From assembly GCA_963826715.1 (NCBI GenBank), contig CAWGYA010000002.1, forward strand, positions 448,001 through 512,000: a stretch of DNA of 64,000 nucleotides, in the 5' to 3' direction. A program made the translations under genes and the position numbers. The notes under the pieces are model-generated. The model saw only the letters and a program-made list of their open reading frames with translations, had not been told where the DNA came from and did not search any database. Positions within the stretch are counted from its first letter, which is position 1; each line of letters begins with the position of its first letter. This document shows, one piece after another, positions 7,986 to 39,978 of this stretch. Origin of the DNA: Candidatus Bathyarchaeota archaeon. GTDB lineage: Archaea; Thermoproteota; Bathyarchaeia; Bathyarchaeales; Bathycorpusculaceae.

Positions 7986-8056
7986 CAGTTAACCTTGGCA
8001 TTGCGCGCGCAGACTCAACAACAAAATCTAAACAGTCTACCTAATTCCGGGAAAGG

Positions 8057-10252: not shown

Positions 10253-10519
10253 TAAATTACTGAATGATTAATTATATTTGTTTACTGAAGTGATTTGCTC
10301 GCGTGTTATATTTTTCTGAGTTCAAAGAATAAAATTCCAAAAACATTGGAAAAACGCCCAATTTTTGCAGCAAAATACGCTTGATAAACGCTTGGATTAG
10401 CTGAAGCGCAACGAAAACGGCTTAAACTCACTGAAAAATTCCAAGAAGTAACCGTGAAATTTCACTACTACTGCCCTATCACCTGACCTATTTAGTTGAT
10501 AGGTCCTCATGCGCTTGCG

Positions 10520-14104: not shown

Positions 14105-14266
14105 AGCGTTGACGCCGATTACAATTAGCTGGTATGTGTATAAATAACTTAAGAATCTTAAGTCACAATATACTGAAAAAGTTAATTACTTTTACTAATT
14201 TCTCGGCGTGAAACGGTATTTTGGGTATCAAAAACAATTAAATAAATACGGTCTGATCTTCAGTCC

Positions 14267-14413
14267 TCAAATACCTTCATCGTCAAAAAAGAGATCCTCG
14301 GAATCCTGATTATCGCCAGAATCGCCTATTTCGTCGAATCTTAAAGTACCACAGAATTCGCACGCTACCGATTCCTCTTTGTTTTCGTGTCCACAGTTCT
14401 TGCAAGGCCACAT
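14267..14413 (-). CDS. RanBP2-type zinc-finger microprotein with acidic tail (48 aa, not in ORF track)
   Basis: MWPCKNCGHENKEESVACEFCGTLRFDEIGDSGDNQDSEDLFFDDEGI matches W-x-C-x2-C-x3-N-x6-C-x2-C. Confidence 0.75.
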   Translation of the reverse strand: MWPCKNCGHENKEESVACEFCGTLRFDEIGDSGDNQDSEDLFFDDEGI

Positions 14414-14489
14414 AATGATCCCATTTTGTCATTTGATTATGTACGCTTTTACACCTTGTATAACAAAGCAGGTCTCTCTTAATAAGGAG

Positions 14490-18848: not shown

Positions 18849-18896
18849 TTGCTATTGTTTCTTTCTTTAGTCAAGTTTAGGTCTCTCCACTTCTAT

Positions 18897-21875: not shown

Positions 21876-22023
21876 TGTGGCTGTCTCCTTTTTTAATTAA
21901 CCAATCAACCAAGTAAAGCATAGATTATGATAAAGGAATTCCAAATTTAACTTTTCTTTATCCAAAATTCAGGCTATGGGAAAATTGACGAAACTAATCT
22001 AATCTATTAGTTTTTTGCTTTGA

Positions 22024-22749
22024 CTAAACGGTTACTTTGTTTGTTATTATGACTCTATTAGAATCAGGTCTTTTTTGATATCGCCAATATTCACCGTTGA
22101 ACTCTCTTAATGTGTCTTCTAAATTTGACAGGTCAATATATGTGAAAGGTGTTTCATTTTTGAGGTCCTGAGTATTTATTTCTTGCTTTCCGTTAAAAGC
22201 TCCGTATAGGAGTATCATATCTTTTATAATGTAGCTTGGGCAAACCATTTTTTTTGATTTCCAATTATAATTGTCTTTTGAATTTACGATTATGTCAAAA
22301 TGCTCTAAAATCTTAAGGTAATAGCCCACTACATACTTGACGATGCGGCGGTCACCATATTTTTCAACCGTTGAGAAATATAGTGCACGCCTATCCAAAC
22401 CGTCTGTGTGTAAGTACTTTAGATTAATCTTTTCTTGAATAAATTGTGCGACATCGCTCCTACTGAGTAGAGTAAATAACAAGACCGGCTTAATTGAATC
22501 AAACGTATATTTTACTGAAATATCATGCAAGTAATTAGCATCAAAGTATTCGACTCCACTCACTTTCGTTAAGTTGAGGTAATATCGTCTAATTATTGTC
22601 ATTATGTTTTTTTTCGATTTTAATCCCTGGGGTTCGATGATGGAGTTAAATTCGGGTTCAAGGTTTTTGTATTGCAATCCTGGCTTACTTAATTTAAGGA
22701 TTTTATAAACCCATTCAGGTTTGAAAGCTCTGTCCAGGCCGATTATCAT
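22024..22749 (-). CDS. brxA: BREX type 3 BrxA-like protein
   Basis: 241 aa, IGLDRAFKPEWV start; last gene of the operon, overlapping pglZ. Confidence 0.65.
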   Translation of the reverse strand: MIIGLDRAFKPEWVYKILKLSKPGLQYKNLEPEFNSIIEPQGLKSKKNIMTIIRRYYLNLTKVSGVEYFDANYLHDISVKYTFDSIKPVLLFTLLSRSDVAQFIQEKINLKYLHTDGLDRRALYFSTVEKYGDRRIVKYVVGYYLKILEHFDIIVNSKDNYNWKSKKMVCPSYIIKDMILLYGAFNGKQEINTQDLKNETPFTYIDLSNLEDTLREFNGEYWRYQKRPDSNRVIITNKVTV

Positions 22750-24653
22750 TCAAACACCACTAAAGGTACAATTAACTCCTCAGGTGAGATTCCGCCATGT
22801 GTGATTGCCATGTCCCCGTAGTTTTTAAAGCAATCATTTCCTATAGGAAGAACTAATATCAAATCTTTTGGTAACATAGCATAAGAGTATGAAAATAGCT
22901 TTTGATGATTTTTATCAATAGCCTCTTCTGCAAAAATTTCGCTATCATAGAATAGACATCTCGAAGATTCGGTGCATATCTGCAAATTCTTGTTGACTTT
23001 GATTCCGTTGCCTTTGCAAAAGACATTTCCATGATCTGAAGTCAGAATGATTTGGTATCCATCATTTTTAAGCTGTTTGATGAGCTCTTTAATAGAAGAA
23101 GAATGTATGTGATTTGCTGCATTCTTATAGAAGTTTCTTTTTCCTACATCAATTATAATGTTCTCGTGGCTCAGGTCGTCGAACAGATTACATATTAATG
23201 CTAAGTAATCGTACCCTTTAAGGTGCTCGTATCGCTTTTCCGTGCTTTTGGTTTTTATTGTATTGGTCTTCAGATTTATGTGGCCATATAATACATTGTC
23301 TTTTTTGAATCCTCTTTCTGCCATGGCGCTCAGAAATTCTTTTTCTTCGTTTGGGAATTCAAATTTCGAATTCATGAAATCTTTTGGGGTTTTGCCGGAG
23401 AATATTGCTGTTCTTGAAAACGATGTAACTGTTGGGAGAACTGCGAACAGGCTTTTTTCAGTTATTTTAAATTCTTTGAGGTTTTCTCGAAGGAGGAACC
23501 ATTCATCAAAGGACATTCCGTCCATTACAATTAAAGCTATGTTTCTATTAAATTGGCTTTTTGAATAATCTATGACTTTGTCTATCGTCAAAGGCTTGTT
23601 TGATTGTGACGCATAAAACAAATTTTCATAGTTGTTATTGCTAGTATTGATTAGGTGTTTTCTGAAAAGTCTGTCAAAATTTTCATATTCTGTATCAAGA
23701 TTAACAAAATCATCCATTTTCAAGTTGTCATTTATCTGTATCCGATAGATGATTTCACAAAATAGCCTTGAAACGGTCATGATATCGTCTAGCTCATTAA
23801 AGCTAAATTCCTTTTTTATTAATTCATCGATCTTGTAATGATAATCAGCAACCATTGCAATTATCTTTCTTTGAGTCATTTCTTGATCAGGTGACTCTTT
23901 GAATTTTGCAAGCCAGAGTTCTTTATAGATCATATCATTATCGATAGGCAGCTCCAGATGGTTAGTTAAACTGAGTTTAAGTAAATAAAATTGGATAATA
24001 GGATCGGACAATTTTAAAATAGGAAATTTCCCAGATTCTTTTTGAATTATATATGCCTTAATTTGATTTTTGATCCAATTTATAAAATCAGGCTTGTTAT
24101 TTTTGAATTCTCTTAAATCAACTTCAAGTTTTTTAGAAGCACTGTCAATAATAGATTTCGGAATGTCTCCGTTATCAATAATATAAGATAATGCTATTTT
24201 GAAATTTTCAGTTATGGAGTGAAGTTTACCCAAATCAATATTCCAGATACTTTTAAGAATGAACTCCTCTGTGCTTCCTGCATCCAAACCGAGGTTCTTT
24301 CTTTCGCAATAATCGTTGTATAGCGTCTGGTAATAAGTTGAATCTAATTGTTTTATCATATCAGACTCGAATTCGGGAAAGATATCGGACAGGAGAATTT
24401 CTTTTATCCTGAAATTATTTCTTATAAAAAAACTTTCGTTTCTTTTTGAGGAATAGACAATAATACGATTATTTCTATTTTGACTAAGAAAGATGTGTAG
24501 AGATGCGTCATCTCTAAATTCTTGAAGTTTATAGTTCTTTGCAAGTTCATTTTTGAGATTGCCATCTCTGAGAAGATTCGAGGGGTCATATACATAGATT
24601 TTATCGCCAAGCAATTGAATATCCTTGATTATCGAGGTAAACCATTTCTTCAT
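22746..24653 (-). CDS. pglZ: BREX alkaline-phosphatase-fold protein PglZ
   Basis: IVMDGMS, LPTVTSFSRTAIFSG, TSDHGN, THGGISPEE. Confidence 0.92.
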   Translation of the reverse strand: MKKWFTSIIKDIQLLGDKIYVYDPSNLLRDGNLKNELAKNYKLQEFRDDASLHIFLSQNRNNRIIVYSSKRNESFFIRNNFRIKEILLSDIFPEFESDMIKQLDSTYYQTLYNDYCERKNLGLDAGSTEEFILKSIWNIDLGKLHSITENFKIALSYIIDNGDIPKSIIDSASKKLEVDLREFKNNKPDFINWIKNQIKAYIIQKESGKFPILKLSDPIIQFYLLKLSLTNHLELPIDNDMIYKELWLAKFKESPDQEMTQRKIIAMVADYHYKIDELIKKEFSFNELDDIMTVSRLFCEIIYRIQINDNLKMDDFVNLDTEYENFDRLFRKHLINTSNNNYENLFYASQSNKPLTIDKVIDYSKSQFNRNIALIVMDGMSFDEWFLLRENLKEFKITEKSLFAVLPTVTSFSRTAIFSGKTPKDFMNSKFEFPNEEKEFLSAMAERGFKKDNVLYGHINLKTNTIKTKSTEKRYEHLKGYDYLALICNLFDDLSHENIIIDVGKRNFYKNAANHIHSSSIKELIKQLKNDGYQIILTSDHGNVFCKGNGIKVNKNLQICTESSRCLFYDSEIFAEEAIDKNHQKLFSYSYAMLPKDLILVLPIGNDCFKNYGDMAITHGGISPEELIVPLVVFE

Positions 24654-24656
24654 ACG

Positions 24657-27185
24657 CTAATCATCTTTTGCCAGCGCCCAATCAATTATTGCATAAATCT
24701 CGTCATCAGACTGAATCACTTTACTATCCAACTTCTTTCCAATAGCTCTAATCTGATCGACACCCTTCTTGTTGTATAGCTGAATTAAGCCATGCAACAA
24801 GGCCTCCTTTCTAACGTCAAAAATCTTCTTACCAGCCTTAGTTTCTTCAACTATTTGCTGGAACTCCTTATTCAATCTCTTATCTCGCATATCTTCCTTC
24901 TCTTTCTTTTCAGCTATAGATGGGAGCCTGTACTTTCCAGTCTCAGTCACAAAATTTTCTTCCAACATCAACTTTAATTCAGGAATTTTGTCATCCGAAG
25001 TTAGAAGATTTTTGTTGTACTCAATGGATACTTCACCGTAACTTCTGGGTATTCTCAAGAATTGAGAAAGCCAAATTATTGCTGTCTTCTCACTGTCAAT
25101 TCCTAGCACTGTTTGATCGAGATTAAATTTGCCAATGCTTTTCTTCAGCTTTAATCTCTTTTCATATTCAGATATTTGCTCTTTATTGAACCAAAATCCA
25201 TCTCTTTCCATGAAGTTGTTTCTAAGCAAGCCATAGAACTCAGAGGCATCAATTCTAACTTCAAAACCATTCTGAATATATTGAGCAAGAAGCTTAGAAT
25301 ATAACATTTGTCGGCTTCTCTCAATATTTGGCTCAACAGGTAGCTTTTCTAAATGTACTTCAATGAATTCTTTCTCAAGATTTAATCCACCTTTTCTTAA
25401 GAAAGATACCCGAAATTCATCTGATGGCTTGTAAGCATTAATAATAAGATCATTTTTTACCGAACCTGCTGATGTTACCTGCTTGAAAGTAGTTTGCTTT
25501 TTATCTAACACTGCAACTTGCCCAATAATGAAGCCTGCTTTGACAATAGCTTCATGTATACACTTCCAAACCGATGCTTGAGAATTATGAAATTCTATCG
25601 TTATCCATCTGTTAGGTTTTAAAATGTCAAAATACTCTTTAAAAGAATTTGTCATCAATTGTCGGTATTCATTTAACGTTTTGTTTTGTGTGTTATTAAT
25701 AATTGCCTCCTCTTTATTGTTTGTAAAGACTTTTAACCAAGCCTCCCACATGAAATTTAGTTCTGAATACATTAGATTTCCACCAAACGGTGGATCGGTA
25801 AAAATATAATCGACACTATTTTTAGGAACATTTCTCAATGATGAAGCCGATTGAGTAGAAATACATAAGCAAGGTTTTAGCTCATTCAAAAATTGCTGCA
25901 ATCTACTTGTCTTGTTTATGTGTTCTCTTAAAACCTTAATCATAGAAAGTTCTTTGTTTAAAGAAGGAACATAAAGCGTTCCACTCATAGGTCCACCCCC
26001 AGCTCCAAATTGAGCACCTTGGGATACGAACCTGTATCTTTTCGTTACAGTAGTTCCTACGGATGTTACATTAAAAAATCTTGTCGGTGATCGCATTTTA
26101 GCTGCAAAAGCTGACAAAACCAACAAATTTCTCAAAGAATAAAATTGGTGAATATTAGTAATCCCTCTTTTGTCATTTCTTCTTGATTCGTCCCCTTCCG
26201 GCATCCTATTTATTGGGAACCAGTATGGAATTACGTTGCTCTCTATTTTTTTGAGGGTTTCGTCATCTTGTTTGTCTGGTCTTTTACTATATCTTTTGTT
26301 TTGAAAAACATATGAAATATACACTTGCTTTTGCTTTCTCAATATTACTTCTTCACCTAAGATGGGATCATATACTTTTTCATATGCACTCTTTCCTTTG
26401 CTAGTCGATAGATCTGCACTACATGAAGGGCAAAAATACTGATCTTTTATTTTTCCTATTTCAACATTAACTGCTGTATCCCAAAAAACGTATTCATTAC
26501 TACAATGAGGGCATATGAAAACGTCACTCCATATTGAATAAATTATCTTGCCCATTTTACCTTGGGAGAACGATCTCTCATCATGGACTGTTTCAAACAT
26601 CCATCCATATTCTTTTTCGATTTCGTCAACTGTTTTAGCGGCTTCGTCCCCGTAATTCAGACCCAAAAACGGAAAATTATATCCAAATGCGATGAATGTG
26701 GCAGCTGGGGATAAATCTAGTAATATTGCTCTCCTTTTCGTCGTTGAAGCAGCTATACCAGTCATACCAGTTCCACAAAAACCGTCCAGAATTATATCGC
26801 CAGGATCGGTATAGTGCACTATGAATTTCTCAATTGCCTTGTAGGGTACTTTGGTATGATAACAGTGTGTTAGATATATAGGATCATTCTTACCTTCGCT
26901 TATGTCACCAACAAATGGTTCTTTTTTATAGTTGTCTGTCTCTGAATTGTATGGTTTTCCATATTTTTGTACAAATTGAGTTAGATAGGGGTTAGGATAA
27001 GCTGTATAATAAGGGGGGTTTGATAACTCCAGTATATCCTCATCGTCACCTTTGGGAAACCCCTCTAAAGCTTTCATTCTTTCCATGTCTTGCTTAATCT
27101 TTTCTTGAGTCAGCTCTAATGATTTAACAAAATCATCATCCTTCTGGTTCTCAATTAATCTATTTTGCTTCATGGAATACCACAT
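24657..27185 (-). CDS. pglXI: BREX type 3 DNA methyltransferase PglXI
   Basis: YHTKVP, DGFCGTGMTG (SAM binding), CPHC/CPSC, FTDPPFG catalytic motif. Confidence 0.85.
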   Translation of the reverse strand: MWYSMKQNRLIENQKDDDFVKSLELTQEKIKQDMERMKALEGFPKGDDEDILELSNPPYYTAYPNPYLTQFVQKYGKPYNSETDNYKKEPFVGDISEGKNDPIYLTHCYHTKVPYKAIEKFIVHYTDPGDIILDGFCGTGMTGIAASTTKRRAILLDLSPAATFIAFGYNFPFLGLNYGDEAAKTVDEIEKEYGWMFETVHDERSFSQGKMGKIIYSIWSDVFICPHCSNEYVFWDTAVNVEIGKIKDQYFCPSCSADLSTSKGKSAYEKVYDPILGEEVILRKQKQVYISYVFQNKRYSKRPDKQDDETLKKIESNVIPYWFPINRMPEGDESRRNDKRGITNIHQFYSLRNLLVLSAFAAKMRSPTRFFNVTSVGTTVTKRYRFVSQGAQFGAGGGPMSGTLYVPSLNKELSMIKVLREHINKTSRLQQFLNELKPCLCISTQSASSLRNVPKNSVDYIFTDPPFGGNLMYSELNFMWEAWLKVFTNNKEEAIINNTQNKTLNEYRQLMTNSFKEYFDILKPNRWITIEFHNSQASVWKCIHEAIVKAGFIIGQVAVLDKKQTTFKQVTSAGSVKNDLIINAYKPSDEFRVSFLRKGGLNLEKEFIEVHLEKLPVEPNIERSRQMLYSKLLAQYIQNGFEVRIDASEFYGLLRNNFMERDGFWFNKEQISEYEKRLKLKKSIGKFNLDQTVLGIDSEKTAIIWLSQFLRIPRSYGEVSIEYNKNLLTSDDKIPELKLMLEENFVTETGKYRLPSIAEKKEKEDMRDKRLNKEFQQIVEETKAGKKIFDVRKEALLHGLIQLYNKKGVDQIRAIGKKLDSKVIQSDDEIYAIIDWALAKDD

Positions 27186-30061
27186 TATTTAGTTATTCGA
27201 ATTTGGGTAACTGCAAATAGTTTGATGATGGGTACGAGATTTTTCTTCCTTTCAAGCCCTATTTTTTCTTGAATCCTTTGCTGCAACAGTTCTTTTAGTT
27301 TTGATTCTTTTATATTAGCTATTGCGATATTCTGAATTGCTTTTTCCTTATCATCAAAATACTTTGAGTACTTTTCCTGTTCTTCGGTAACCTTTTTTAT
27401 CAATTCAAGCTTGGCTACGCTAAAAAGTTGCCGCACTTTGCTTTCGAGTTCTAAGTTAGAGACTTCCATTGCTTTATCAGGTTCTGTAATAACTTTCACA
27501 TTTATTCCAGTTTGCAAACTCTGACTGCCTTCCAGATTTTCAAGTAGTCTACTTACATTTTCATTGTATTTCAAATTATCATCTATGAATACAGGGGCCA
27601 AGAATCTTCTTAAGAATCCTTGATTATTTGTGAAATCGACTCTATAATAAAAAAGGAGCCCTTTTGTCTCATAATTCGAATTTAATAGTTCAGCAGTAAA
27701 AGTAAGAAAATCTTTTTCCATAATTTCCTCAGTGATTTTTTGGACCAACGGATGTGTAATGCCTATGTACTCATAATTTTCGTTCTCCAGAGCGATATCC
27801 TTGTCAAAAACAGCATTTCTTAGCCTTGAATCCCCAATTTGCTGGTCTGAATAATACACACCTTTCGACTTTGAATACTCAGTCAATGCTGAGTTGCTCA
27901 TCTTACCATAAGATTCAACGAGATTCTTAATAATTAATGACGCATTCTTAACAACTGAGTTCTGAAGTTTTTTAAAATCTATTGGGTCAGAGAAAGGAAC
28001 AAGATATTCTTGCTTTTCAATAATATCTTGAGCTCGGCTGTAAATTTCGTCACCTATTTTTTGGAGCTCCAAAGCTTTGCTGTTATTGAACTTAATCGCT
28101 TCAATGAATATCTTATCAAAATTGAATTCGTCTTGTAATAGACTCAGCACATCTGTTTTCTTGTCATCGCCAAATTGCGCAGCGATTCTATCCAGCTTTT
28201 CATTGAGAACATCTCTAATTCTTTCTTCAACGGTATCCTTTAGGATAAAATTGAACACAAGGACGTCTTTCTTTTGGCCAATTCTATCAAGCCTTCCGAT
28301 CCTTTGTTCAATTTTCATTGGATTCCAAGGTAAATCGTAATTAATCATAATGTGGGCAAATTGAAGGTTGATGCCTTCCCCGCCTGCGTCTGTTGAAATT
28401 AAAATTTGAAAATCTTCTTTGAACTTCATTTTTGCTTCAATCTTTTTGTCGAGAGGCATTTTTCCATTCAAGTAGGCAACTTTGAAACCCAGACTTTCCA
28501 GTATTTCTCCGAGATATTTCTGAGTTGAGATAAATTCAGTAAAAATCAAAAATTTTGTATGCAAATCGCTTTCTCTTTTGATAACCTCATTTATTATTTC
28601 AACAGCTTTTTTCACTTTAAAATCGTGGCGACCAAAGCTTGCTCTCTTAGCTAACATAACGCATTTAGTTAGTATTTCTATTTCGTCATTTATTTTAGAT
28701 TCAATTGCAATAATATTCCTTTTACTCTCAGCAGGATCGCTTATTAACTCATCATAAGCCTCCTGACCCTGCAAATCATCAAGCTCAACATCGTCTGCAA
28801 TTTTCTTTATTTCTTTTGATGTTTCAGATGATATGCCTCGTAACAATTCAAGTCGTTTGTTAAGCGCCTCGTATATTGCTCGGGAGCTACTGGACACCAT
28901 TCTCTGATACAATATAAGAAGAAACATGAAAGCGAAATTTCCCTCTCTCGATGCTAGGTTATAATAGCTCGAAACATAATCGCTGACTTCATCGTATAGT
29001 TGGACCTCAATATCCTCAGGTTCTCTCTGAATTTTAACAATGCTCGTAATTCTTGATTTAAAGATAAGATTACCATTGAAATCTGTAGCTGCCCTTTTCT
29101 TATTCTTGATCGTTACAGATCTTACGTTATCGGGAATTAGAGAATCTGATGCATAAAACTTGTAAGAGTCAATCAAGGAGAGCAAGTGTCTAAATTTTTC
29201 CCCATCCCCTTGATGAGGTGTCGCAGTCAACAAAAGAAAAATTGGCGTAACCTCAGAAAGCGCTTTCCCAATCTTATATCTTGATGTTTCTGTACCTTCT
29301 GAGTCTTTACTTAACTTGTGCGCTTCATCAAAAATTACCATATCCCAATCTGCGTTAATACATCCGTCAGTAACATTTTGATTATGCTCTTCTCTACTTT
29401 TTCTCACTTGCTCAGATAAAGAATTCCTAATTGCTTTTGGCTTAAGAAAGTCAAGAGAGGTAATAACATAATTGTATTTTTTCCAAACGTTTACATTTCC
29501 ATGAATCTCTTGCAGAGCTCTGAAGGTATTCCTATCTATGATAGTGAAATCTTCATTAAATTTAGTTTTTAATTCATCTTTCCATTGGGATGTTAATCCT
29601 GCGGGAGTTATGATGATTATTCTTTTTACCATATTTCTAAGCTTTAGTTCTTCGAATATCAATGAAGCTTCGATTGTTTTACCTAAACCTACCTCGTCAG
29701 CAATTAGGCATCTTGGCTTGAATTGTTCAATGATTTGGTTTACTGCTAATATTTGATGAGGTAAAGGAACAATTTTGAAATTATTGGCCGCGACAATTTT
29801 GTCCTGGTATAGCAATGCATTGATTTTTTCAGATAATATTCGAAGTTTCAAAAGATGTAAAACATCGAATTCTCCGTTATTTAACTTTTCAAGCGGAGTT
29901 ACTACCTTTGAAGTATCTTTTTCCTCAAGCGTCAAAGTCTCCTTAGATTTAGGAAAATAAATCTCATAATAATTGGTGCCATCAAAGGAATGAATATTGA
30001 TTATTCGACCTTGCTCTAAATCAGCATATACTGGACTTCTGACTATGTCTCCAATTTTCGT
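27185..30061 (-). CDS. brxHII: BREX SNF2/RapA-like helicase BrxHII
   Basis: ADEVGLGKT, FDEAH, LLTATPHQG, STDAGGEGINLQ, EQRIGRLDRIGQ; frame extends 42 codons upstream of 29935 to ACG-KIGDIV. Confidence 0.85.
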   Translation of the reverse strand, partial: TKIGDIVRSPVYADLEQGRIINIHSFDGTNYYEIYFPKSKETLTLEEKDTSKVVTPLEKLNNGEFDVLHLLKLRILSEKINALLYQDKIVAANNFKIVPLPHQILAVNQIIEQFKPRCLIADEVGLGKTIEASLIFEELKLRNMVKRIIIITPAGLTSQWKDELKTKFNEDFTIIDRNTFRALQEIHGNVNVWKKYNYVITSLDFLKPKAIRNSLSEQVRKSREEHNQNVTDGCINADWDMVIFDEAHKLSKDSEGTETSRYKIGKALSEVTPIFLLLTATPHQGDGEKFRHLLSLIDSYKFYASDSLIPDNVRSVTIKNKKRAATDFNGNLIFKSRITSIVKIQREPEDIEVQLYDEVSDYVSSYYNLASREGNFAFMFLLILYQRMVSSSSRAIYEALNKRLELLRGISSETSKEIKKIADDVELDDLQGQEAYDELISDPAESKRNIIAIESKINDEIEILTKCVMLAKRASFGRHDFKVKKAVEIINEVIKRESDLHTKFLIFTEFISTQKYLGEILESLGFKVAYLNGKMPLDKKIEAKMKFKEDFQILISTDAGGEGINLQFAHIMINYDLPWNPMKIEQRIGRLDRIGQKKDVLVFNFILKDTVEERIRDVLNEKLDRIAAQFGDDKKTDVLSLLQDEFNFDKIFIEAIKFNNSKALELQKIGDEIYSRAQDIIEKQEYLVPFSDPIDFKKLQNSVVKNASLIIKNLVESYGKMSNSALTEYSKSKGVYYSDQQIGDSRLRNAVFDKDIALENENYEYIGITHPLVQKITEEIMEKDFLTFTAELLNSNYETKGLLFYYRVDFTNNQGFLRRFLAPVFIDDNLKYNENVSRLLENLEGSQSLQTGINVKVITEPDKAMEVSNLELESKVRQLFSVAKLELIKKVTEEQEKYSKYFDDKEKAIQNIAIANIKESKLKELLQQRIQEKIGLERKKNLVPIIKLFAVTQIRITK

Positions 30062-30130
30062 ATTCTATCCCTCTGACGATTCCTTTAATCTAAAGTCTTT
30101 GCAGGCACCGACTACCGCTATGAGGCTATT

Positions 30131-33100
30131 TTACTTCGTAATTCTCTTGATTTTGAGCCGAACATTTTCTTTGTTGTCTGCTTTCAATATTCCTTCTATG
30201 AAGGAATCGATACTCTCTTTGAAATTGTCAACTTTTAAAATGTCAGTCTCTTCAGTCAACTTTTTGTATAGATCAACAAGGTCTACTTCCTTGATTTCCA
30301 AATGCCGCAGTAAATTGTTTATGGCTTCGACCGTTTTATCATTTATTTCTTTATCTAGATATCCCTGCGAGATTATTCTTTGAATTATTCTTTTTTCGTC
30401 ATGTTCAAGGTTTGAAAAATTATTTTGGTTCTGAATTATTTCTTCAACAATACGAGACTCCCACATTTGTAAAATTTTTTCGAAACCCTGATTCAAAGCC
30501 TCAATTTGCGAATTTATGTTTCGTAGTGAATCCTCATTTAGATTTGGAAACTGGCAATGTGGGCAAATAGTTAGAGTCTTTAATTCATCAACATTAAAAA
30601 CAAGGCATTTTAGGTCCCTAAGTTGGGCAATCCTAAGCATGCCGTCAGTGAATGAGCCGTCATTATTGTAATTTATTTTTTGCAATATCTTTAATCGTTT
30701 TACCGTCTCAGAATTCTCTATATCCTCAAGTGTTCTCCAGTCAACTTTCTTTCCAACATATTTCTCGTGTGTATCATAGTAAATTTGCTGCCATTTTTCT
30801 TTGAAAAGCTTACCTTTGCCTTTTAGTGGTTCTCTTTCATCATTCTTGAGCATTTTTTTAATGCTGCTAACTATTAATTTTGAGTCGTCATAAATTTTGA
30901 GTAGTTGTTCACTTTCATTTGATTTGAAGAAATCAGATTTTATACACTCGTTAACGTTTTTCATGTAACTAATGTCTGATTGAATGTACGTAAAGTAATC
31001 ATTGAAAAAGCTCTTTAATTTCTGAATAGTATCGTAGCCTTGCTTGATCTGATTAATTCTATCTGGGCTGTAATCCAGCTTTTTGAATTCTACAATTGAT
31101 TTTATTCTTAACTTTGAGAAATCGACTTTTTCAATCTCTTGAACCTTCTCATTTAGAGCTTCAATAGGGATCCCAATATCTATCGATTGTTTTAGTCTTT
31201 CAAAATCCTCGCCAATTTCTTTAATGTCCTTTTGTATTCTTTCAACCTTTTCTATGTATTTCCTGTAAGCTTCTGGTCTATCTCTTTGAGTCTGCAAAAG
31301 ACTCTTGTCCTCACCTATTGCATCAAATAACGTTTGAACCTTTGAAACATTGAGGTCTTCTTCTTTTTTGATGTATGAAATATCATCAAAAGCTCTGAGT
31401 CCTCCACTAAATAGCGTATAGAAATCCGAAGCGGAATACAGGTTACCTCTTTTTGAGCTCAATATTATGTCGCCATTTCTTAGAAGCACAGCCAAAATTA
31501 ATTGCGTCAACTCACCCTGAAGACCGAATGGTTTTTTGGAAAACTCAGTTAGCACTTCCTGAATTGATATATTCTTGCCATCCTCTAACTTGTCAAGAAT
31601 GACCTTTGTATATTCGCTCTCTGTTGTATCAAGTCTATTGTCCTTGTACAACCCAAGAGGGAGCAAGATATTTGTTGATTGGGTTAAGAGGTCTTGCACA
31701 ATTCCTTGCTGTTTCTGGGAAATATCCCTTAAAATAGACTCAATTGTCCCTCTGATGTTTTCCGATGAGAGTTTTGACCTAAGTTTAGGGTACTTTGAGA
31801 ATTCTTTTGTAAATTCTTCATTCAAAATTCTCTGCTTTATCTGACTAAATATTTCAGCGCTTACATCAGCTGAAACACCTAAATCCTCCCCAAGTCTGCA
31901 ATTCTTTCCCTGATAGGTAATTTTCGCGTTTTGTAATGCTTCAATGAGGCGAGGTCTTAGCTCTCTATCAATTTCATTTCTTTTTTTATTCTGCATTATA
32001 GAGACATAAGCTTTGGTTTTGATAAACTCGTCAATTGCAGCTAATCTCTTGATACTGTGGCTAAACCGTTCTGAAAAAGCTAAACTAATTTGGATATTTC
32101 TTTTATGATTGACCTTCGTTTCTTTAATGCCATAACCCAAAAAAGTTACTGCATAATCTAGATTGTCTTTGACATCTAGCTCGTATCCAATATCAATCAA
32201 CAGTGTACCATTTCTAAAGGAGTTTCTATCATTCCAATGAGCGGAATCATCAAGAACATATTTTTGACTATTTTCAAAATACGACAGTTTATCAGCTTCA
32301 AGTAAAATATCCAGTTCTTGTAAAAGAAAGCTCTCAGCAAATCTTTCATTAACATACTTGAGATCATCCATATTTGCGACTTTATTTTCAATGATGACAT
32401 CTATGTCAATCGTTTTTTGCAGATCTAAGTAATAAACGCCATCTTCACTTCTGCTGATAAGTTGACCATCAGATACCTTTCTTAAATTTTCAAGAATTCT
32501 TTCTATATCATCCACTGGATTGAGTATTTTACTAGTAGGAATAACGAAAAGCGTATTTGCAAGCTCTTGTGCAGTTGCGCCGTTTTTATTTGAGGCATTA
32601 ATTAAGTTGAGTATTGCTAATGCCTTTACAAGCTTGAGCGCTGTAGGTCTAAGTTTCGCATCAATAAGGTCAATTTTCGATTTAAGAGTGTCAACAGCTT
32701 CACATATTGGTCTAACCTCAGGATTGTTTTTGATTGTTGACACTTTTTCCATATCATCATAGATTTTATCATATGTTATGAAAGCCGGAAATTCTTCATC
32801 TAAGACACGTCTTATCTCCTTACTCAAGAACTGTATGATGCCTCTCTTTTCATAGAAAGGTAACTTTGAGAAAACTTCAATTACGTATGGGTGAATTGGA
32901 TAAATGTTCACGTATTTGGACTCTTCAACGGCTAAATTACTAAAATAGTGAGCGATTTTACCAAACTCTTTTGTTAGTTCCATTTTTTGATTGGCATTCT
33001 TGCTTACAATCCTCTTAGAAATCATTTCTTCTACGCTTTCATTTGTGATGTAGATAGGCAAGTACCTTTGTTGAGCTCTTCCTATTTCGGAGGATTGATC

Positions 33101-33772
33101 AACATATTTTGGATCTTGAAAAATATTCTGCTGCATCGACACCATGAACATAAAATCAAGTGTGTTTGAGCATTCACCTAATTGCCGGTAAACCTGAATA
33201 TCAAAATTCATATCTTCCCTTTTCTTCTGCCTTAGAAAGTCTGAAAACTCATCAAATATAACCAAAAGGCCTTTCTTTGGATCTTTATTTTTTATGTCGT
33301 CAACGATCTCCTGGACAAGTTCTTTGACATTTTTGTCACCTTTTTCGGGATCCATTTCCCTTATCTCAATTCCATAAGTCTCCCTGAGTTGTTTTCTAAC
33401 TCTGTAAAAAAATGTCCTTGCAAGTGATCTGTTTTGAACAGCATCAAGCTCATACTTCACAATAAAGAATTCTCTTTTAATTGAGCCTAACTTTTCTCTA
33501 ATTTTTTCGTTTTTAACATACTCAATTAATGTTGAATTGGATAAGACTAAGGAGAGAAATCCTAAAAGATGGGATTTGCCGGTTCCATAATTTCCGATTA
33601 TGTTGGCTGATTTATGCTTCTGGGAATCCAATACGCTGAGTAAATCAAGCAATTCTTCCTCAAGAGTTGGAGAAATTACATATTCCTCAACTAATTCTTT
33701 CTCGTTCTTAATCGATCCAATCTCTATGACGTCTTGTATTTCTTGGTAGTTGATGATTTGATTGACTTTCAT
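30131..33772 (-). CDS. brxC: BREX ATPase BrxC/PglY (DUF6079-like)
   Basis: GNYGTGKSH Walker A, VIFDEF Walker B, YPIHP, C-terminal CPHCQF. Confidence 0.85.
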   Translation of the reverse strand: MKVNQIINYQEIQDVIEIGSIKNEKELVEEYVISPTLEEELLDLLSVLDSQKHKSANIIGNYGTGKSHLLGFLSLVLSNSTLIEYVKNEKIREKLGSIKREFFIVKYELDAVQNRSLARTFFYRVRKQLRETYGIEIREMDPEKGDKNVKELVQEIVDDIKNKDPKKGLLVIFDEFSDFLRQKKREDMNFDIQVYRQLGECSNTLDFMFMVSMQQNIFQDPKYVDQSSEIGRAQQRYLPIYITNESVEEMISKRIVSKNANQKMELTKEFGKIAHYFSNLAVEESKYVNIYPIHPYVIEVFSKLPFYEKRGIIQFLSKEIRRVLDEEFPAFITYDKIYDDMEKVSTIKNNPEVRPICEAVDTLKSKIDLIDAKLRPTALKLVKALAILNLINASNKNGATAQELANTLFVIPTSKILNPVDDIERILENLRKVSDGQLISRSEDGVYYLDLQKTIDIDVIIENKVANMDDLKYVNERFAESFLLQELDILLEADKLSYFENSQKYVLDDSAHWNDRNSFRNGTLLIDIGYELDVKDNLDYAVTFLGYGIKETKVNHKRNIQISLAFSERFSHSIKRLAAIDEFIKTKAYVSIMQNKKRNEIDRELRPRLIEALQNAKITYQGKNCRLGEDLGVSADVSAEIFSQIKQRILNEEFTKEFSKYPKLRSKLSSENIRGTIESILRDISQKQQGIVQDLLTQSTNILLPLGLYKDNRLDTTESEYTKVILDKLEDGKNISIQEVLTEFSKKPFGLQGELTQLILAVLLRNGDIILSSKRGNLYSASDFYTLFSGGLRAFDDISYIKKEEDLNVSKVQTLFDAIGEDKSLLQTQRDRPEAYRKYIEKVERIQKDIKEIGEDFERLKQSIDIGIPIEALNEKVQEIEKVDFSKLRIKSIVEFKKLDYSPDRINQIKQGYDTIQKLKSFFNDYFTYIQSDISYMKNVNECIKSDFFKSNESEQLLKIYDDSKLIVSSIKKMLKNDEREPLKGKGKLFKEKWQQIYYDTHEKYVGKKVDWRTLEDIENSETVKRLKILQKINYNNDGSFTDGMLRIAQLRDLKCLVFNVDELKTLTICPHCQFPNLNEDSLRNINSQIEALNQGFEKILQMWESRIVEEIIQNQNNFSNLEHDEKRIIQRIISQGYLDKEINDKTVEAINNLLRHLEIKEVDLVDLYKKLTEETDILKVDNFKESIDSFIEGILKADNKENVRLKIKRITK

Positions 33773-33776
33773 AGCA

Positions 33777-34244
33777 TTACCAGCCTATTACGAATCCTTC
33801 GTTGTTGGAGATATCTAACTCCATATAATCGGGAGTACCTTCCTCTGAATAGATAAGTAAGTTATTCTTCCTTTTTGCTTTTATAAATAAAATGATAACT
33901 TTCTTTTTCCTTGTAAGATAATTAAAAGTATTAATCGGATTTATCTTGCCAACTTCCTCACTGAAGAGATAATCGATATTGTCAAATGCAATCACGTCAG
34001 AGCCCATATTATGGAAAAAATCCCGAAGTTTGTCTGCTGCTTCTTGATCTCTATCTTTTTGAGGAATTGCTAGTAGAAGTTGAGCTAACTCGGCGGATAG
34101 ATTGAAGACTTGTATATTATTTTCTAAACAATATTTCTTATAAAAGTCAGGATCGTGTGACTTGGTTCTTTCGTCATTTATTATTATTAGCTTGTTATAT
34201 TGCTCTTTAGCGCTCTCTATCAACTTAGCAAAATCATTCATCAT
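33777..34244 (-). CDS. brxF: BREX type 3 BrxF-like protein
   Basis: 155 aa first gene; NLSAEL...FDNIDYLF...LIYSEEGTPDY. Confidence 0.7.
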   Translation of the reverse strand: MMNDFAKLIESAKEQYNKLIIINDERTKSHDPDFYKKYCLENNIQVFNLSAELAQLLLAIPQKDRDQEAADKLRDFFHNMGSDVIAFDNIDYLFSEEVGKINPINTFNYLTRKKKVIILFIKAKRKNNLLIYSEEGTPDYMELDISNNEGFVIGW

Positions 34245-34498
34245 TAACGCTCACCAAACAACCCATTATACTGAATACTCATACTACCAGTAACCAATTT
34301 TACAGTTACAGATTCGTTCAACGTCAGACATTTTAGATTTTATACAGCCGTCTTGGTATTTAATACTACCGTGTTAGCGGAATTATCAATTCTGTCCTTT
34401 TGCTTTTAGTCATCAATCGCTCTTGACTAAAGGAGGGTATCCGAAAAAATACAGCATTAATATAAACCAAAAAATAGATAAATCAACCCATCTCAAGA

Positions 34499-35239
34499 GT
34501 GATAATAGTGTTAATTGGACTTTACGAAAGTTTCGATCCTGTGTGGGTTTACAAAATTCTGAGGTTAAGTATTCCGGGTGTAAAATATAGTTCAGTTGAG
34601 CCTCAATTTTCTTCTATAATAAAAGTAAGAGGCAACAGAACAAGGAAGAACATCATCACAGAAGTGAGACGACACTACCTAGAGTTAGAAAGAAAAGCTG
34701 GAGTTGAATACTTTAGCAGCAATTATCTCCATACCCTCTCTATTGAGTATTCTTATGAAACGATTAAGCCGATCTTACTCTTTACGCTAATATGTAAAAG
34801 TGGAATTGTAAAGTCAATTCAAGAAAAAATTAACTTGAGATATTTGCATTGCCCAAAAGTAGATATCGACGCTTTATTGAATGCTGCAATCCAAAAATTT
34901 GGGGATAGAATTGTTATCACTCGTGCAGTGCGCAATTACTTATCCATTCTTGAGAATTTTGGGGTAATCAAAAGCTTAGATAATGATGAGTTTGAGATAC
35001 AAAATACGAAATCCAATTGTCCAACCTATGTAATTAAAGACATGATTCTATTGTATGGCCTTTATAACTGTAAAATAGAGATTCATTTGGATGAGCTCCT
35101 AAGCGATGTTTCATTTACTTATGTCAATCTTATTGAAATCGAAGATGTACTAAGAGAATTTAATTCAAAGGATTGGTCATATCAAAAAAGGATTGATTCA
35201 AGCATCTTATACATAAGAAAACAACTAAACAAAAGGTAA
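34499..35239 (+). CDS. Second BrxA-like paralogue, divergent from the operon
   Basis: Colinear with 22024-22749 (WVYKIL, GVEYF, NYL, IKP.LLFTL, IKDMILLYG, LREFN, YQKR.DS). Confidence 0.75.
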   Translation: MIIVLIGLYESFDPVWVYKILRLSIPGVKYSSVEPQFSSIIKVRGNRTRKNIITEVRRHYLELERKAGVEYFSSNYLHTLSIEYSYETIKPILLFTLICKSGIVKSIQEKINLRYLHCPKVDIDALLNAAIQKFGDRIVITRAVRNYLSILENFGVIKSLDNDEFEIQNTKSNCPTYVIKDMILLYGLYNCKIEIHLDELLSDVSFTYVNLIEIEDVLREFNSKDWSYQKRIDSSILYIRKQLNKR

Positions 35240-35410
35240 TATTGTCTATCTGTACCAGTTTAATAGTCTCCTTATGAAGCGACCTTAATTTCGAAAAGAA
35301 AAAACTGCTATTTGGGAAAATGGATTTTTTTATGGAAGTTGTAGTGCGCTCTGCAAAAAAGGGGTGCACTATTTCTGACGAGATTGTTTTGCTGAATAAA
35401 TTTCAGTGTG

Positions 35411-35870
35411 GTAGTAGTTGTTCTAGGTCGAAATTCTTAGGTTGAACAACAACTTCTACTTTGACTTGCTAATAGAATGTTTTGCACCTAAGATTAATGG
35501 TTAAAAGAAGAAGAAGATTGAAAAAAATCGCGCTTCTTCTTCTACTATGTTAACTATGCATTTTTGAAACACATTACATAATACTCGGTAAAAAAAGTTC
35601 TTCAAACAAGAGAAGTAGTAGTCTAGTTGAAATTTGCAGCATCGACTACTACTTCCAAAACTCAATGACAATGGTGAAAGAACAACAACACGTGTTATTT
35701 CAATTGTTGTTCTTCTCTTGGGGTTTGCCATAACACTACTGGGTTGAAAGAAAAAAAATCAGTTTTTTCCTAAAAATAGCAATTTTTTCTTCTTCTCTTA
35801 GAAGCTTATAAAAGTCGGGTTTTTGGTAGAAGAAAAAAGAGTTGGTGCAAACAGCTGTTTTTTTTTCTTC
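35411..35870. repeat. Array of inverted repeats / hairpins in a non-coding region
   Basis: Arms 35411-22/35448-59 (11/12), 35506-16/35533-43, 35612-23/35644-55, 35678-88/35704-14 and 35829-38/35861-70 (all perfect). Confidence 0.8.
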
Positions 35871-36220
35871 AAATAGCAAAGAATTGGAGCAGAACAAAAA
35901 AACTATCTTTTTTTCATGCTATCTGTTTCTTGTCTTATTTTAAAAAGAGAAAAGTTAGAAGCATTCTTTGGGATAAGAGTTAATTTTGTTTTGTTTGCCA
36001 CTTTTGTTCAGACACTCTTACGCCAAGGAAGATTAATGACAGTTAAGTTAAGAGTTAAGCATAAAACACTTTTTCCATTCCGCTTCAAATTCTCAGAATC
36101 CACATCACAATAGACTTGAATAATGAAAATAAACTCTGTTCTGGAACCTGACAAAAAGCTAATTAGAAGCCGTTTAATGGTTAAAATAAGCCTAAATTGA
36201 GATTTTTGAGGCTTTGAAAA

Positions 36221-36940
36221 ATGGCGGAAAAATGCAAAGGCATGGATGATTTTGAAAATGTAAGGGGGTTAGCTGAACACGAAAAGCAGTTGTTGGACTC
36301 ACTTTGTGAATCGGAGCTTGATCTGGGAGTTTTCAGCAACCCTCAAACTGGCAATTCAGCACAAGAAAGTCCTGATCGGAAACGTAAAACAGGTTTGAAG
36401 GGGCCAGGTTACCGTAGAAAGCATGTTTATGTCAAGAGTATTTCGCAATATAGGGAGGAACGCAAACGCAGAAAACAAGTTTGTGAGCTGTCGGGTTTAA
36501 GCCAGGAGGAGATAGCTAAGCGGTTGGGTGTTAGTGTTCGGACGGTTCAGCGAGATCAAGCTAAAGCTAAACCGTATTATCAGGGTAGGTTTAACCGTTT
36601 TTGCAGGGAGCTTCATGAAAAGGAAATGCGGGAGTTTAACGAAACCTCTGAAGGTTTATCTTTGCCTCAAAGAGCCAAGGTTTTGACGAAACTACTTGAT
36701 CGCCAAAGAAAAGAGGAGGAGTCGCATAAGAGGCATTTGCGCACGTTTTTCATAGATATCGATCTGGATCGCTGTAACTCTGAAGGATTTCCCGGAGCGA
36801 AGTCTTTCATAGCAAGCCATAATTTGAATTTGAAAGACGGCATCCAATTTGTAGTTGTTTTTCGAAAGAATGGACAAAAACACGCTATCAACATAGGCAA
36901 TTTGGCTCAAAGCACTAATACATCGAATAATCCATACTAA
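36221..36940 (+). CDS. HTH DNA-binding protein
   Basis: GLSQEEIAKRLGVSVRTVQRD. Confidence 0.75.
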   Translation: MAEKCKGMDDFENVRGLAEHEKQLLDSLCESELDLGVFSNPQTGNSAQESPDRKRKTGLKGPGYRRKHVYVKSISQYREERKRRKQVCELSGLSQEEIAKRLGVSVRTVQRDQAKAKPYYQGRFNRFCRELHEKEMREFNETSEGLSLPQRAKVLTKLLDRQRKEEESHKRHLRTFFIDIDLDRCNSEGFPGAKSFIASHNLNLKDGIQFVVVFRKNGQKHAINIGNLAQSTNTSNNPY

Positions 36941-36970
36941 ATTGACCTGCCGCTAAAACCGTTATTTTAA

Positions 36971-36991
36971 TACACAGAATACACAGAATAC
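36971..36991. promoter_or_regulatory. 9-bp tandem repeat next to TATA-like TTTATA, upstream of the RHH gene
   Basis: TACACAGAA-TACACAGAA-TAC then TTTATA. Confidence 0.4.
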
Positions 36992-37041
36992 TTTATATTA
37001 CAATACAACCCATGTGTACACACCTAAAAGAGGAGTCAAAA

Positions 37042-37515
37042 ATGCCCAAAAACGTAACAATTTATCTTTCCGACGAAATCGCCGGAAAAATGGAAAAATA
37101 TCAAGAAGTAAACTGGTCAGAGATCTGCAGAAAAGCCGTAATTGACTACATAGACACACGCAGCAACATAGATTTAGGCCCTCTTATAGAAAAACTCAAA
37201 GCAGAACGCAACGAAGCCTACAAACAAGGCCAAATACTCTTCTACAAAATAGCGCCAGAAATGGGTCTTAGAGATTTTGAAATTTGGTATCCAAAAATCA
37301 GCCAAACGTTAATTGAAGACATCTGCGTCGCAGAGTCAACCCCCCTCCCAGCTGCCGTAGCCACTACACGAGCAATCAGAGGAATGGCTCATATGATGGG
37401 CAGTTTTTGCCGAGAAAAAAACATACCTTATCCCTCAGATGCTTCTGACGCATTTTGGCAAGGAGCTATAGCTGCATTCATGAGTGTTTTCACAAAATTT
37501 GCCAAAGTCATCTAG
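37042..37515 (+). CDS. Ribbon-helix-helix regulator-like protein
   Basis: MPKNVTIYLSDEIAGKMEKYQEVNWSEICRKAV; GAGGAG SD before ATG 37042. Confidence 0.7.
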   Translation: MPKNVTIYLSDEIAGKMEKYQEVNWSEICRKAVIDYIDTRSNIDLGPLIEKLKAERNEAYKQGQILFYKIAPEMGLRDFEIWYPKISQTLIEDICVAESTPLPAAVATTRAIRGMAHMMGSFCREKNIPYPSDASDAFWQGAIAAFMSVFTKFAKVI

Positions 37516-37762
37516 AGAGGGAAAAAATTTGGCAGCAGCAATCTCACCTAAAAGAAAAGCGCTCTTCATCAAAGGCTTCCATGATGCTGAAAAACTTATC
37601 CGCATAGCTAAGTGTGAAGCGGCTAAAACAGGCTTAAAAGGAAAAATTAACGTGTTGGACCTTGGACACTACATTCCGCACATTGAAGGTCAAGCGGTTA
37701 TAGTAGAAGAGGCTGGTAGTGAATATACGGTTGCAGGTAGCGGCAACTTAAAACATGAGTAA
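37484..37762 (+). CDS. Hypothetical protein (element core)
   Basis: Packed co-directional ORF; true start may be further downstream. Confidence 0.5.
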   Translation: MFSQNLPKSSREGKNLAAAISPKRKALFIKGFHDAEKLIRIAKCEAAKTGLKGKINVLDLGHYIPHIEGQAVIVEEAGSEYTVAGSGNLKHE

Positions 37763-37765
37763 ATT

Positions 37766-38134
37766 ATGGATGAAAAACTAAGAAAGGAACTAAAAGAATT
37801 AGCCCAAATACTAGATGCAGCATCAACTAGGATCTGGCAAACCCTAGAAAACCCTTCTCCCGCCAGCAACTCTGTGTCAACGGTTAATGAGCTTAATTTT
37901 AGCACCCTAAAGTATGAGCCTCAACAAGGCACCAAACTTGGAGACTATGAAATTGCCCACAAGCAAAGTAACCTTGAAGACAAATGGCGTCCAGCCTACG
38001 CAATTCTGCGAAATAGCAACGCAACAATAAAAGACCGCTACCACGGCGAAACCTACCAGTACAGCTATTGGCTTTATGGCGAAGACAAAATCTACAGACA
38101 AAAACTACCCAAAATGGGCAAGATTAAGCCTTAA
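37766..38134 (+). CDS. Hypothetical protein (element core)
   Basis: 122 aa, ATG, operon packing. Confidence 0.65.
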   Translation: MDEKLRKELKELAQILDAASTRIWQTLENPSPASNSVSTVNELNFSTLKYEPQQGTKLGDYEIAHKQSNLEDKWRPAYAILRNSNATIKDRYHGETYQYSYWLYGEDKIYRQKLPKMGKIKP

Positions 38135-38158
38135 TAATCAAGGACAAGGGATAAGCCA

Positions 38159-38533
38159 ATGGTTTCTGTTGATTTTTCCTTGGGTTCAGCCGTATACATC
38201 CGCTATAAAGACCATGTTCTGTTCAAGAATACCAAGCACCCCTTAGAAGAAGCAATAGAACGGGAAACCATAGGCTGGCTATCGAAAGAAAACAACGAAA
38301 TAATTCTTGTAGAACACGACAGAACAACACCAGACATTAAACTAAGTAGCGGCCAAACCACTGGATTAATCATTATAAAAAGCTGCATAACGGAAATTCG
38401 CAAACTGCCACTACAAGAAATTTCAGAGTGGCGCTTAAATTCTCAGAAAACAACAGATGAAGCAGAGTATGCGCTTCAACCAACGAAGCGAAAAACTCGC
38501 CACAACCCAAACAGGACGGGAGCAGCCAAATGA
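38159..38533 (+). CDS. Hypothetical protein coupled to the integrase
   Basis: 124 aa; ATGA overlap with the integrase start. Confidence 0.65.
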   Translation: MVSVDFSLGSAVYIRYKDHVLFKNTKHPLEEAIERETIGWLSKENNEIILVEHDRTTPDIKLSSGQTTGLIIIKSCITEIRKLPLQEISEWRLNSQKTTDEAEYALQPTKRKTRHNPNRTGAAK

Positions 38534-39960
38534 AAACCGTAACCATAACGGAGAGCTCCCGAGGCAATAAACTGCAAAAACCATTGACTCTCACCTTACC
38601 TGAAGCAGAGACAGCCGCCGACAAAAAACTCCAACAATATATTATCGATGCTTTGCTAACCAGAATGCCAAGCCTAGTAACTTTAACCTTTCAAAACACC
38701 ACAACCATAGAACTAGCAAAACACCTTCTGCGACACAGAACTGGTAGTCCAGCGACTCTCTATCAATACATCTACGGTGTCCACCGATTCAGTCTATGGA
38801 CAAACACCCAACCGGACCAACTTGTAAAAGCCTGCCAAGATCAAGACGGCGACCCTAAGCCCAAAGTGCTATCACAAACCAGTCGAATGCTAGATGACTT
38901 CGTAGCCAACTTACAAGCGGAAAATCTGGCTCCAGGAACCGTAAGCAACCACGTCAAAGGCGTCAAAGCACTATTCCGATGCAACGGACTAAAACTCGAA
39001 CTACCTTACAATCTGAGTAAAAGAAGCGTCTACGAAGACCGAGCACCATCACCAGAAGAACTGCAAAAAATGCTTGAATTAGCCGACCTACGCGAACGTG
39101 TACTAATAACGCTCTTAGCGTTAGGCGGATTTCGCATCGGTACCCTATCCAAGCTGCAATATCGCCACGTCAAGCGCGATCTAGAAAAAGGCATAATTCC
39201 AATCCATGTTCATGTCGAATCAGAAATAACTAAGGGCAAATACCACGACTATGACACATTCCTAGGACAGGAAGCAGCCGAATACCTCAAAGCTTACCTG
39301 GATATACGCAGACAAGGCAGCCCAACAGGCAGAAAACACCCAGAAATATTAAACGACAACTCACCCCTACTCCGTGACGGACAAAGCAACCTTGCCAAAC
39401 CAATAACCACAGGCAGAATCCACTCAGTTGTCCACAACCTCTACGTCAAAGCAGGACTAGTCACAAGCAACCCCCGAGGAAGACGCTACGACCTAAGAGC
39501 ACACAGCATACGCAAATACTTCCGAACACAACTAGCATCATTAAGCATTCAAACAGACTACATCGAATACATGATGGGGCACACAATCAGTACCTACCAC
39601 GACATACGCATGAAAGGCATAGAATTCCTCCGCGGAGTGTACATCTCTTCAGGACTAAGCATAAAACCCAAAACACGCCTAAACAAACTAGAAGCCCTCA
39701 AAGAAATGATTCGCGCATGGGGACTTAACCCCGACCAAGTCATGTCAAGAGAAGCACTAGCCCAATCCAACACAACCGTAATCGACCGAGCCCAACAGGA
39801 ACAAACTCAACTGACACAACTAACCGCCGTTTTAAAGCAACAAATGATCAAAGAAATCTACGAGAGTCAAGGTCCAAAAAGTATGAATTCACGCCTGGGA
39901 CACAGTAGCCCGGGAGAGATTCGAACTCTCGTCAAAGGGTCCAAAGCCCTCTATGCTTGA
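38530..39960 (+). CDS. Tyrosine recombinase/integrase; 3' end overlaps tRNA-Gln antisense
   Basis: Catalytic R (GFRIG), K (TKGK), HSIR, MGH, Y. Confidence 0.92.
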   Translation: MKTVTITESSRGNKLQKPLTLTLPEAETAADKKLQQYIIDALLTRMPSLVTLTFQNTTTIELAKHLLRHRTGSPATLYQYIYGVHRFSLWTNTQPDQLVKACQDQDGDPKPKVLSQTSRMLDDFVANLQAENLAPGTVSNHVKGVKALFRCNGLKLELPYNLSKRSVYEDRAPSPEELQKMLELADLRERVLITLLALGGFRIGTLSKLQYRHVKRDLEKGIIPIHVHVESEITKGKYHDYDTFLGQEAAEYLKAYLDIRRQGSPTGRKHPEILNDNSPLLRDGQSNLAKPITTGRIHSVVHNLYVKAGLVTSNPRGRRYDLRAHSIRKYFRTQLASLSIQTDYIEYMMGHTISTYHDIRMKGIEFLRGVYISSGLSIKPKTRLNKLEALKEMIRAWGLNPDQVMSREALAQSNTTVIDRAQQEQTQLTQLTAVLKQQMIKEIYESQGPKSMNSRLGHSSPGEIRTLVKGSKALYA

Positions 39961-39978
39961 CCACTACACCACCGGGCT
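39906..39978 (-). tRNA. tRNA-Gln(TTG)
   Basis: AGCCCGG acceptor stem, anticodon loop CTTTGGA, T-loop GTTCGAATC; no encoded CCA. Confidence 0.95.

Follow-up and report, generated by a model that had tools for sequence, protein, structure and literature searches.

What does it mean for a mobile element when the gene of its own integrase runs across the attachment (att) site, so that integration rewrites the end of the enzyme? The question is raised by an integrated element in the window, by which we mean the whole 64,000-nucleotide stretch of Bathyarchaeia DNA analysed here, whose positions are used throughout. An earlier note on this DNA had placed the att core inside the last codons of a tyrosine integrase, and had suggested that the tail, differing between the integrated and the excised state, could set the stability or directionality of the enzyme. 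We conclude that the overlap is real; the tail swap itself we regard, with somewhat better than even confidence, as a tolerated by-product of the att architecture.

The element, its target tRNA and its integrase

The integration target is a tRNA-Gln(UUG) gene identified by ARAGORN on the minus strand (39905..39978). The att core is a perfect 15-bp direct repeat that can be extended at neither side, with both copies given here on the plus strand: a tRNA-side copy (39905..39919), antisense to the T-stem and the 3′ strand of the acceptor stem, and a far copy (2616..2630), which is the displaced 3′ end of the tRNA. Read in the tRNA's own direction, the core equals the last bases of tRNA-Gln(UUG) (39978-39905). 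Between the copies lies the element body (2631..39904), measuring 37,289 bp from core to core. Six exact 15-mers are repeated within the window, the att core among them. A chance origin of this repeat is ruled out by the expectation for a second copy of the core in the window (~1e-5), by its occurrence as a single copy pair in the whole 2.64-Mb genome, and by a syntenic empty site in a genome of the same genus (L096), where an acyltransferase homologue and tRNA-Gln(UUG) are followed by a flank with 92% identity over 59 nt to window positions 2572-2630. The empty site fixes the ends of the element, which, with its repeat of the tRNA 3′ end and the tRNA left intact, is a tRNA-targeted integrative element. 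Three relatives (G383, G234, and G398) carry both element ends on a single contig, 41.7, 21, and 12 kb apart, and the nearest homologues are found in Bathyarchaeia.

Just outside the element, the flank 2552..2615 (plus strand) looks like the 3′ end plus att arm found in a sister integrase class with a stop ahead of the core, a resemblance suggesting that it is the relic of an earlier insertion. There is no integrase gene within 16 kb upstream of this flank, and in both L096 and L089 the same relic lies next to the empty site.

The integrase gene (38530..39960, plus strand) encodes 476 aa in the integrated state. The 15-bp core occupies codons 459-464, within the last codons as the earlier note had held, and residues 464-476 are translated antisense tRNA. 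Gene and tRNA are convergent and overlap by 56 nt. The note had added that the integrase transcript would be antisense to the tRNA; this is nothing special to the locus, since of the 20 integrase-like ORFs listed for the genome 6 converge on a tRNA, ending inside it or no more than 60 nt away. The protein matches PF00589 over residues 177-352 (E 4e-11; 43.4 bits against a cut-off of 27.1), and its top fold matches are to archaeal XerA (E 8e-9). In a 53-row alignment R202, K235, H325, R328, and Y356 are invariant and H351 is kept in at least 90% of rows; we take these residues, in the order R202, K235, H325, R328, H351, Y356, to fill the catalytic roles R-K-H-R-H-Y. On the strength of domain and residues, we place the protein in the tyrosine recombinase (phage integrase) family.

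A scripted join of 39919 to 2631, the computed circle, yields an integrase of 468 aa for any crossover within the core, with the five-residue tail TGAQA that had been predicted. Residues 1-463 are common to both states and are followed by 13 residues when integrated and by 5 in the computed circle. Both states retain an intact catalytic domain, which lies more than 100 residues ahead of the swap, and, unlike in SSV1-type splitting, 463 of the 468 codons remain together. AlphaFold places the end of the last ordered helix at residue 446, and residues 448-476 are modelled as disordered (pLDDT <50), with the swap beginning 18 residues past that helix. On the element side, neither core is spanned by another ORF of at least 80 aa. 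Three ORFs conserved in related elements are candidate regulators or directionality factors: the unannotated 36973-37497 and 38164-38533 upstream of the integrase (region 36221-38533), and 2791-3333 beside the right att arm (region 2791-3346).

We infer that this integrase carries out both integration and excision. An excised circle was looked for and not found: this lineage's right arm following a core was seen in none of 80 metagenome loci, no viral contig matched the arm motif, and no loose end at 39919 was among those listed in four sequencing runs, which came from relatives only (at most 0.28 of words shared) and were compared with a 5.5-kb reference too short for both element ends. One attP-like join does occur within chromosomal DNA (L087/L224), where it follows an integrase fragment of 68 codons.

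Read-through and earlier stops in the integrase family

We compiled 189 loci including the window and kept 159 distinct rows, dropping 30 (18 duplicates and 12 that were short, broken or early-stop). The tRNA-Gln core lies in the window's orientation in 56 distinct loci, where the integrase ORF reads through the core in 35, stops inside it in 6, and stops before it in 15, the last class including stops at the first bases of the core. The earlier note had proposed to check whether homologues keep att inside their 3′ end, and took homologues that stop before att as a refutation: the 35 read-through loci keep it, and the other 21 of the 56, along with 72 of the 120 nearest proteins, fall on the refuting side. 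The set of 120 divides into those 72, which terminate short of att, 38 with antisense-tRNA tails, 6 with other tails, and 4 that terminate within the core; tails in this set span 1-95 residues.

The six stop-inside loci share the same frame, and five of them gain a TGA through a variant tRNA acceptor stem; the two that have a paired far end both give 461 aa in either state. In L005, L006, L104, L109, and L110, the host tRNA-Gln carries an acceptor-stem variant with a compensating change, and the far cores of the elements match the variant. The complete read-through loci (32) have integrated lengths of 466-532 aa; for 15 of them the length of 476 aa is set by a stop that the antisense D-arm of the tRNA supplies and other hosts lack, and some read-through integrases continue into the arm of a neighbouring element. 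The integrated tail is conserved in neither length nor sequence among read-through loci. Sister classes end at about residues 446-457, and in one large sister class the tRNA-Gln core has the opposite orientation and the ORF stops before it.

Read-through also occurs on separate branches that use tRNA-Ser (L038-L041), tRNA-Ile (L027 and L029), and tRNA-Lys (L022, probably L023); close relatives stop short, among them the tRNA-Ser paralogue in the window's own genome, which ends 16 nt before its core. The tree, built from 146 columns by a quick method that leaves 70 of 154 forks open, was used solely for the separateness of the Ser, Ile, Lys, and Gln read-through branches. Read-through labels for L031, L121, L131, L151, L166, L171, and L173 came from relaxed-threshold tRNA calls that we judged spurious by eye, and these loci are uncounted.

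Several individual loci show other arrangements around the same core. The tRNA-Gln core is used in either orientation within the integrase family (L132; L014 near 11400), and in L132:1177-3966 two full integrases lie head to head, meeting at one core. Beside a tRNA-Gln gene, L225 (G049:C11:5934-7499) is a 1.5-kb remnant between two cores whose content is solely a frameshifted 3′ fragment of the integrase. The frame of a 95%-identical integrase (L004:11376-16065) continues into a tRNA-Gln end that is broken, and an intact tRNA-Gln(CUG) lies 4.6 kb further along, an arrangement that suggests a later insertion at the same tRNA-Gln site.

Attachment arms and constraint on the last codons

The computed attP is an imperfect inverted repeat of ~65 bp around the 15-bp copy of the tRNA-Gln 3′ end. 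Its left arm (39881..39899, plus strand) coincides with integrase codons 451-457; its right arm (2637..2655, minus strand) matches the left at 15 of 19 bases and contains the TGA (2645..2647, plus strand) where translation of the integrase stops in the computed circle. The arms would be bound by the integrase. The right arm is conserved, with 80% mean column identity over 12 aligned copies, and a motif like the left arm stands ahead of the core across the tRNA-Gln group and in sister classes with earlier-stopping ORFs; the last codons before the core are therefore att DNA read as protein. All 14 right arms examined stop the frame in the core or no more than 5 residues after E463. Right arms without TAG keep TGA, and vice versa, and both are lost only in the stop-in-core lineage, a single event.

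Two other roles for the arms were considered and set aside. The arm motif has what we take to be a likeness to the archaeal BRE-TATA, but the presence of an inverted copy on the far side of the core speaks for an arm used in recombination instead of a promoter. There is no support for the right arm forming a structured or tRNA-like RNA of its own, with a fold z of ~-1.1 on both strands.

Selection on this region was gauged in the 41 same-frame loci, which span a tree of 5.4 changes per site and have identical spacing in 39. By crude parsimony estimates on related sequences, as distinct from likelihood tests, a pN/pS-like ratio is 0.15-0.16 at residues 300-443, 0.48 at 444-450, and 0.73 at 451-458, and synonymous change at codons 451-458 is 5.2 per site, against 10-12 in the folded protein; with the one ratio at 0.73 and the other measure halved, the constraint therefore acts on DNA and hardly on amino acids. 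By estimates of the same crude kind, stops in codons 444-458 are absent from all 41 loci where 14.6 would be expected (6.8 if restricted), and stops in codons 454-458 number 0 against 6.1 expected if neutral (P about 0.002-0.10), an expectation that falls to 2.3 when counting only bases seen at those sites. Stops at codons 461-462 are tolerated in 6 loci. Taken together, the open frame, the fixed spacing, the stops in the arms, and the circle-like tails mean that, in this lineage, the native end of the gene seems to lie across the core; constraint on the arm DNA can explain most of the conservation of frame and stops.

Readings of the tail swap and comparison with known systems

In the by-product reading that we favour, an intact Bathyarchaeia tyrosine integrase has the end of its gene packed against its own recombination site. 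Most family members stop just before or inside the left arm; the window's lineage lacks a stop there, and its frame runs over arm and core. In the computed circle it stops 3-5 residues after the core, in the right arm, and in the integrated element the frame reads antisense tRNA, the arm of a neighbouring element, or other DNA beyond the core. The swapped residues sit on an end predicted to be disordered, beyond the folded protein, most likely with little change in catalysis or directionality. This is favoured by the same-site loci that do without read-through and the nearest proteins that end ahead of att, by the product of 461 aa in both states, by the variable integrated lengths, by the DNA-level constraint at codons 451-458, by the disorder predicted for the tail, and by the placement of read-through on separate tRNA branches. 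Against it stand the frame kept open in 41 of 41 loci and the early stop in 14 of 14 right arms and, by analogy with what is reported for phage Mx8, an att-in-int tail swap can lower activity. Disordered protein ends can also act as degrons. For the state-dependent tail of the earlier note, then, the overlap stands, and the regulatory part fares poorly with a tail of unconserved length and sequence that is predicted to be disordered. A regulatory role may exist, but on balance we doubt it.

The broadest alternative is that, across a widespread Bathyarchaeia lineage, integration itself serves as directionality control through a 3′ end laid across attP, a non-suicidal, reversible third type; we consider this a real possibility, though an unlikely one. 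The circle would then make a properly ended, active integrase, and the integrated copy would be turned down, making either a message that runs on into antisense-tRNA sequence or a protein with the wrong tail; the 3′ end in question would comprise the stop codon, the short Ala-ending tail, half of a hairpin, and a terminator. At the level of the transcript, the stop, hairpin half, and terminator would lie across the core and the mRNA end would be lost on integration, whereupon the mRNA would run antisense into the tRNA and the altered level of integrase mRNA would bias integration against excision. We give this version about one chance in five. It would resemble lambda retroregulation, with the peptide swap incidental. 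It draws on a conserved T-rich tract (2680..2704, plus strand), a candidate archaeal terminator for integrase mRNA in the circle: 13 of 14 right arms carry a T-run of at least 6 at a distance of 60-95 nt from the start of the core, compared with a 4% background, which suggests that integration swaps away stop and terminator and therefore that an effect on mRNA is possible. Most of these right arms were found through similarity to the window's own arm; three were matched over bases 1-56 alone and hence were not selected by the T-tract. The arm-core-arm fold is more stable than the integrated junction in 7 of 9 computed attP joins (a comparison made without shuffle control), but a DNA site built as an inverted repeat gives such a hairpin in any case, whether or not the RNA has a role, and the arm pairs match at just 10-17 of 19 bases across nine paired ends. 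A sigma-70-type scan, which does not cover archaeal types, found no terminator, and the role of the T-tract is putative. In the accessible text of the sources, lambda sib is described as lowering int mRNA from downstream (PMC5300877), and characterised archaeal integrases as needing no directionality factor (PMC8371274), which leaves room for other control.

The protein-level version, closest to what the earlier note proposed, has the short Ala-ending tail of the circle, or its loss, set stability or directionality in the manner of Mx8 or BPs, with any foreign tail serving for the integrated state. It is weakly supported, and we think it improbable. The circle tails are indeed short and alike (11 of the 14 arms give 3-5 residues, mostly Ala-ending, and the remaining 3 stop in the core), three database proteins (P0046, P0055, and P0056) carry a circle-like 3-residue Ala tail from a circle or tandem junction, and the frame is kept open; but the similarity of the tails is accounted for by the conserved DNA arm, and swap-free lineages occupy the same tRNA. 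A hydrophobic-Tyr-X C-terminus is a proteasome-docking motif, and we rejected such an end as a conserved feature of the integrated form, as it occurs in just 5 of the 15 forms of 476 aa. The precedent of Mx8, where 112 residues give way to 13 and the enzyme is reported to be less active (PMC4701971), is likewise weakened by scale, with just 5 versus 13 residues changing here. Least probable of all, at under one chance in ten, is that selection simply keeps the ORF open as far as the core (about residue 461) for some purpose other than switching, for instance ribosome passage over the arm or a minimal tail length in this lineage, the sequence beyond being irrelevant. In its favour, codons 444-458 are stop-free throughout and stops shortly after are tolerated, but sister classes end sooner, and much of the stop expectation comes from codons 444-449, which are open in many sister classes too.

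Swaps of an integrase tail through an internal att site are already known, from Mx8 and from streptococcal rumA ICEs. The note had pointed to mycobacteriophage BPs, but Mx8 is the closer precedent: in the accessible text on BPs, att lies in the repressor gene and integration strips off a 33-residue end that bears an ssrA-like tag (PMC4557955), so that the likeness is confined to the rewriting of a C-terminus, here that of an integrase. In Mx8, as described in the portions available, attP lies inside int, and integration lowers activity by the exchange noted above (PMC4701971, PMC6070905, and PMC4383910); Mx8 and Mx9 IntP share with our case an attP in the coding sequence of a tyrosine integrase, a new 3′ end on integration, and a functional enzyme. 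Here too att lies inside the ORF downstream of the catalytic Tyr (codons 459-464, Tyr 356), but instead of a substantial conserved segment only 5 disordered residues are replaced, by 13; moreover, many relatives do without the swap, and the host is archaeal. By this comparison the layout is a minimal Mx8-like arrangement, a new archaeal variant. The rumA ICEs also have att inside the integrase gene and a state-dependent C-terminus, but are reported to use a serine integrase, a protein-gene target, and reciprocal 3′-end exchange (PMC4701971).

Archaeal integrases are classed, in the accessible text of one review, as gene-splitting or left intact (PMC8371274). The suicidal integrases of SSV1, pTN3, and pT26-2 resemble ours as archaeal tyrosine integrases with att in their own gene and tRNA targets, but are described there as split into int(N) and catalytic int(C) at an att of usually 40-50 bp; here the 15-bp core lies past all catalytic residues and the gene is not split. 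Type II integrases (pNOB8, PYG1, and SNJ2) likewise keep a functional gene after integration, and short cores are reported for them (SNJ2 13-14 bp; Thaumarchaeota median 17 bp; PMC6563490), whereas here the ORF crosses the core and its encoded end changes. The Bathyarchaeia family thus stands between both archaeal classes, with att inside the ORF and an enzyme that survives. In the openly accessible texts searched, we came across no account of its att overlap. As the archaeal integrases studied have no essential directionality factor, a control that depends on integration would fill a gap, and, if true, would define a third archaeal att-in-int type that is non-suicidal and reversible. Should the swap be neutral, a practical lesson still holds: the C-termini recorded for these integrases in databases come from att and antisense-tRNA DNA read as codons, and are not to be taken for domains. 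Either way, read-through, stop-in-core, and stop-before-core forms provide natural controls at one tRNA.

We have also mapped the inverted-repeat att site of an integrase family that carries defence islands. Defence cargo spans window 10520-35239 and includes a BREX type III-like cluster (22024..35239) with PADLOC matches, predicted from genes, for all six components (BrxF, BrxC, BrxH, PglXI, PglZ, and two BrxA, the extra one divergent), as well as a TmtA (Tiamat)-like 1452-aa protein, a UvrD-PD-(D/E)XK fusion, and a Mokosh-like helicase-PLD protein. Outside the element lies the window's second integrase, which belongs to a different family (56616-57848; Zn-ribbon and PF00589; 377 aa). It is convergent with a tRNA-Cys gene, its end 26 nt away, is itself one of the six convergent integrase-like ORFs, and is probably the start of a second island extending beyond the window end. 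Its family has ~16 copies or fragments in the genome, several of them adjoining tRNAs.
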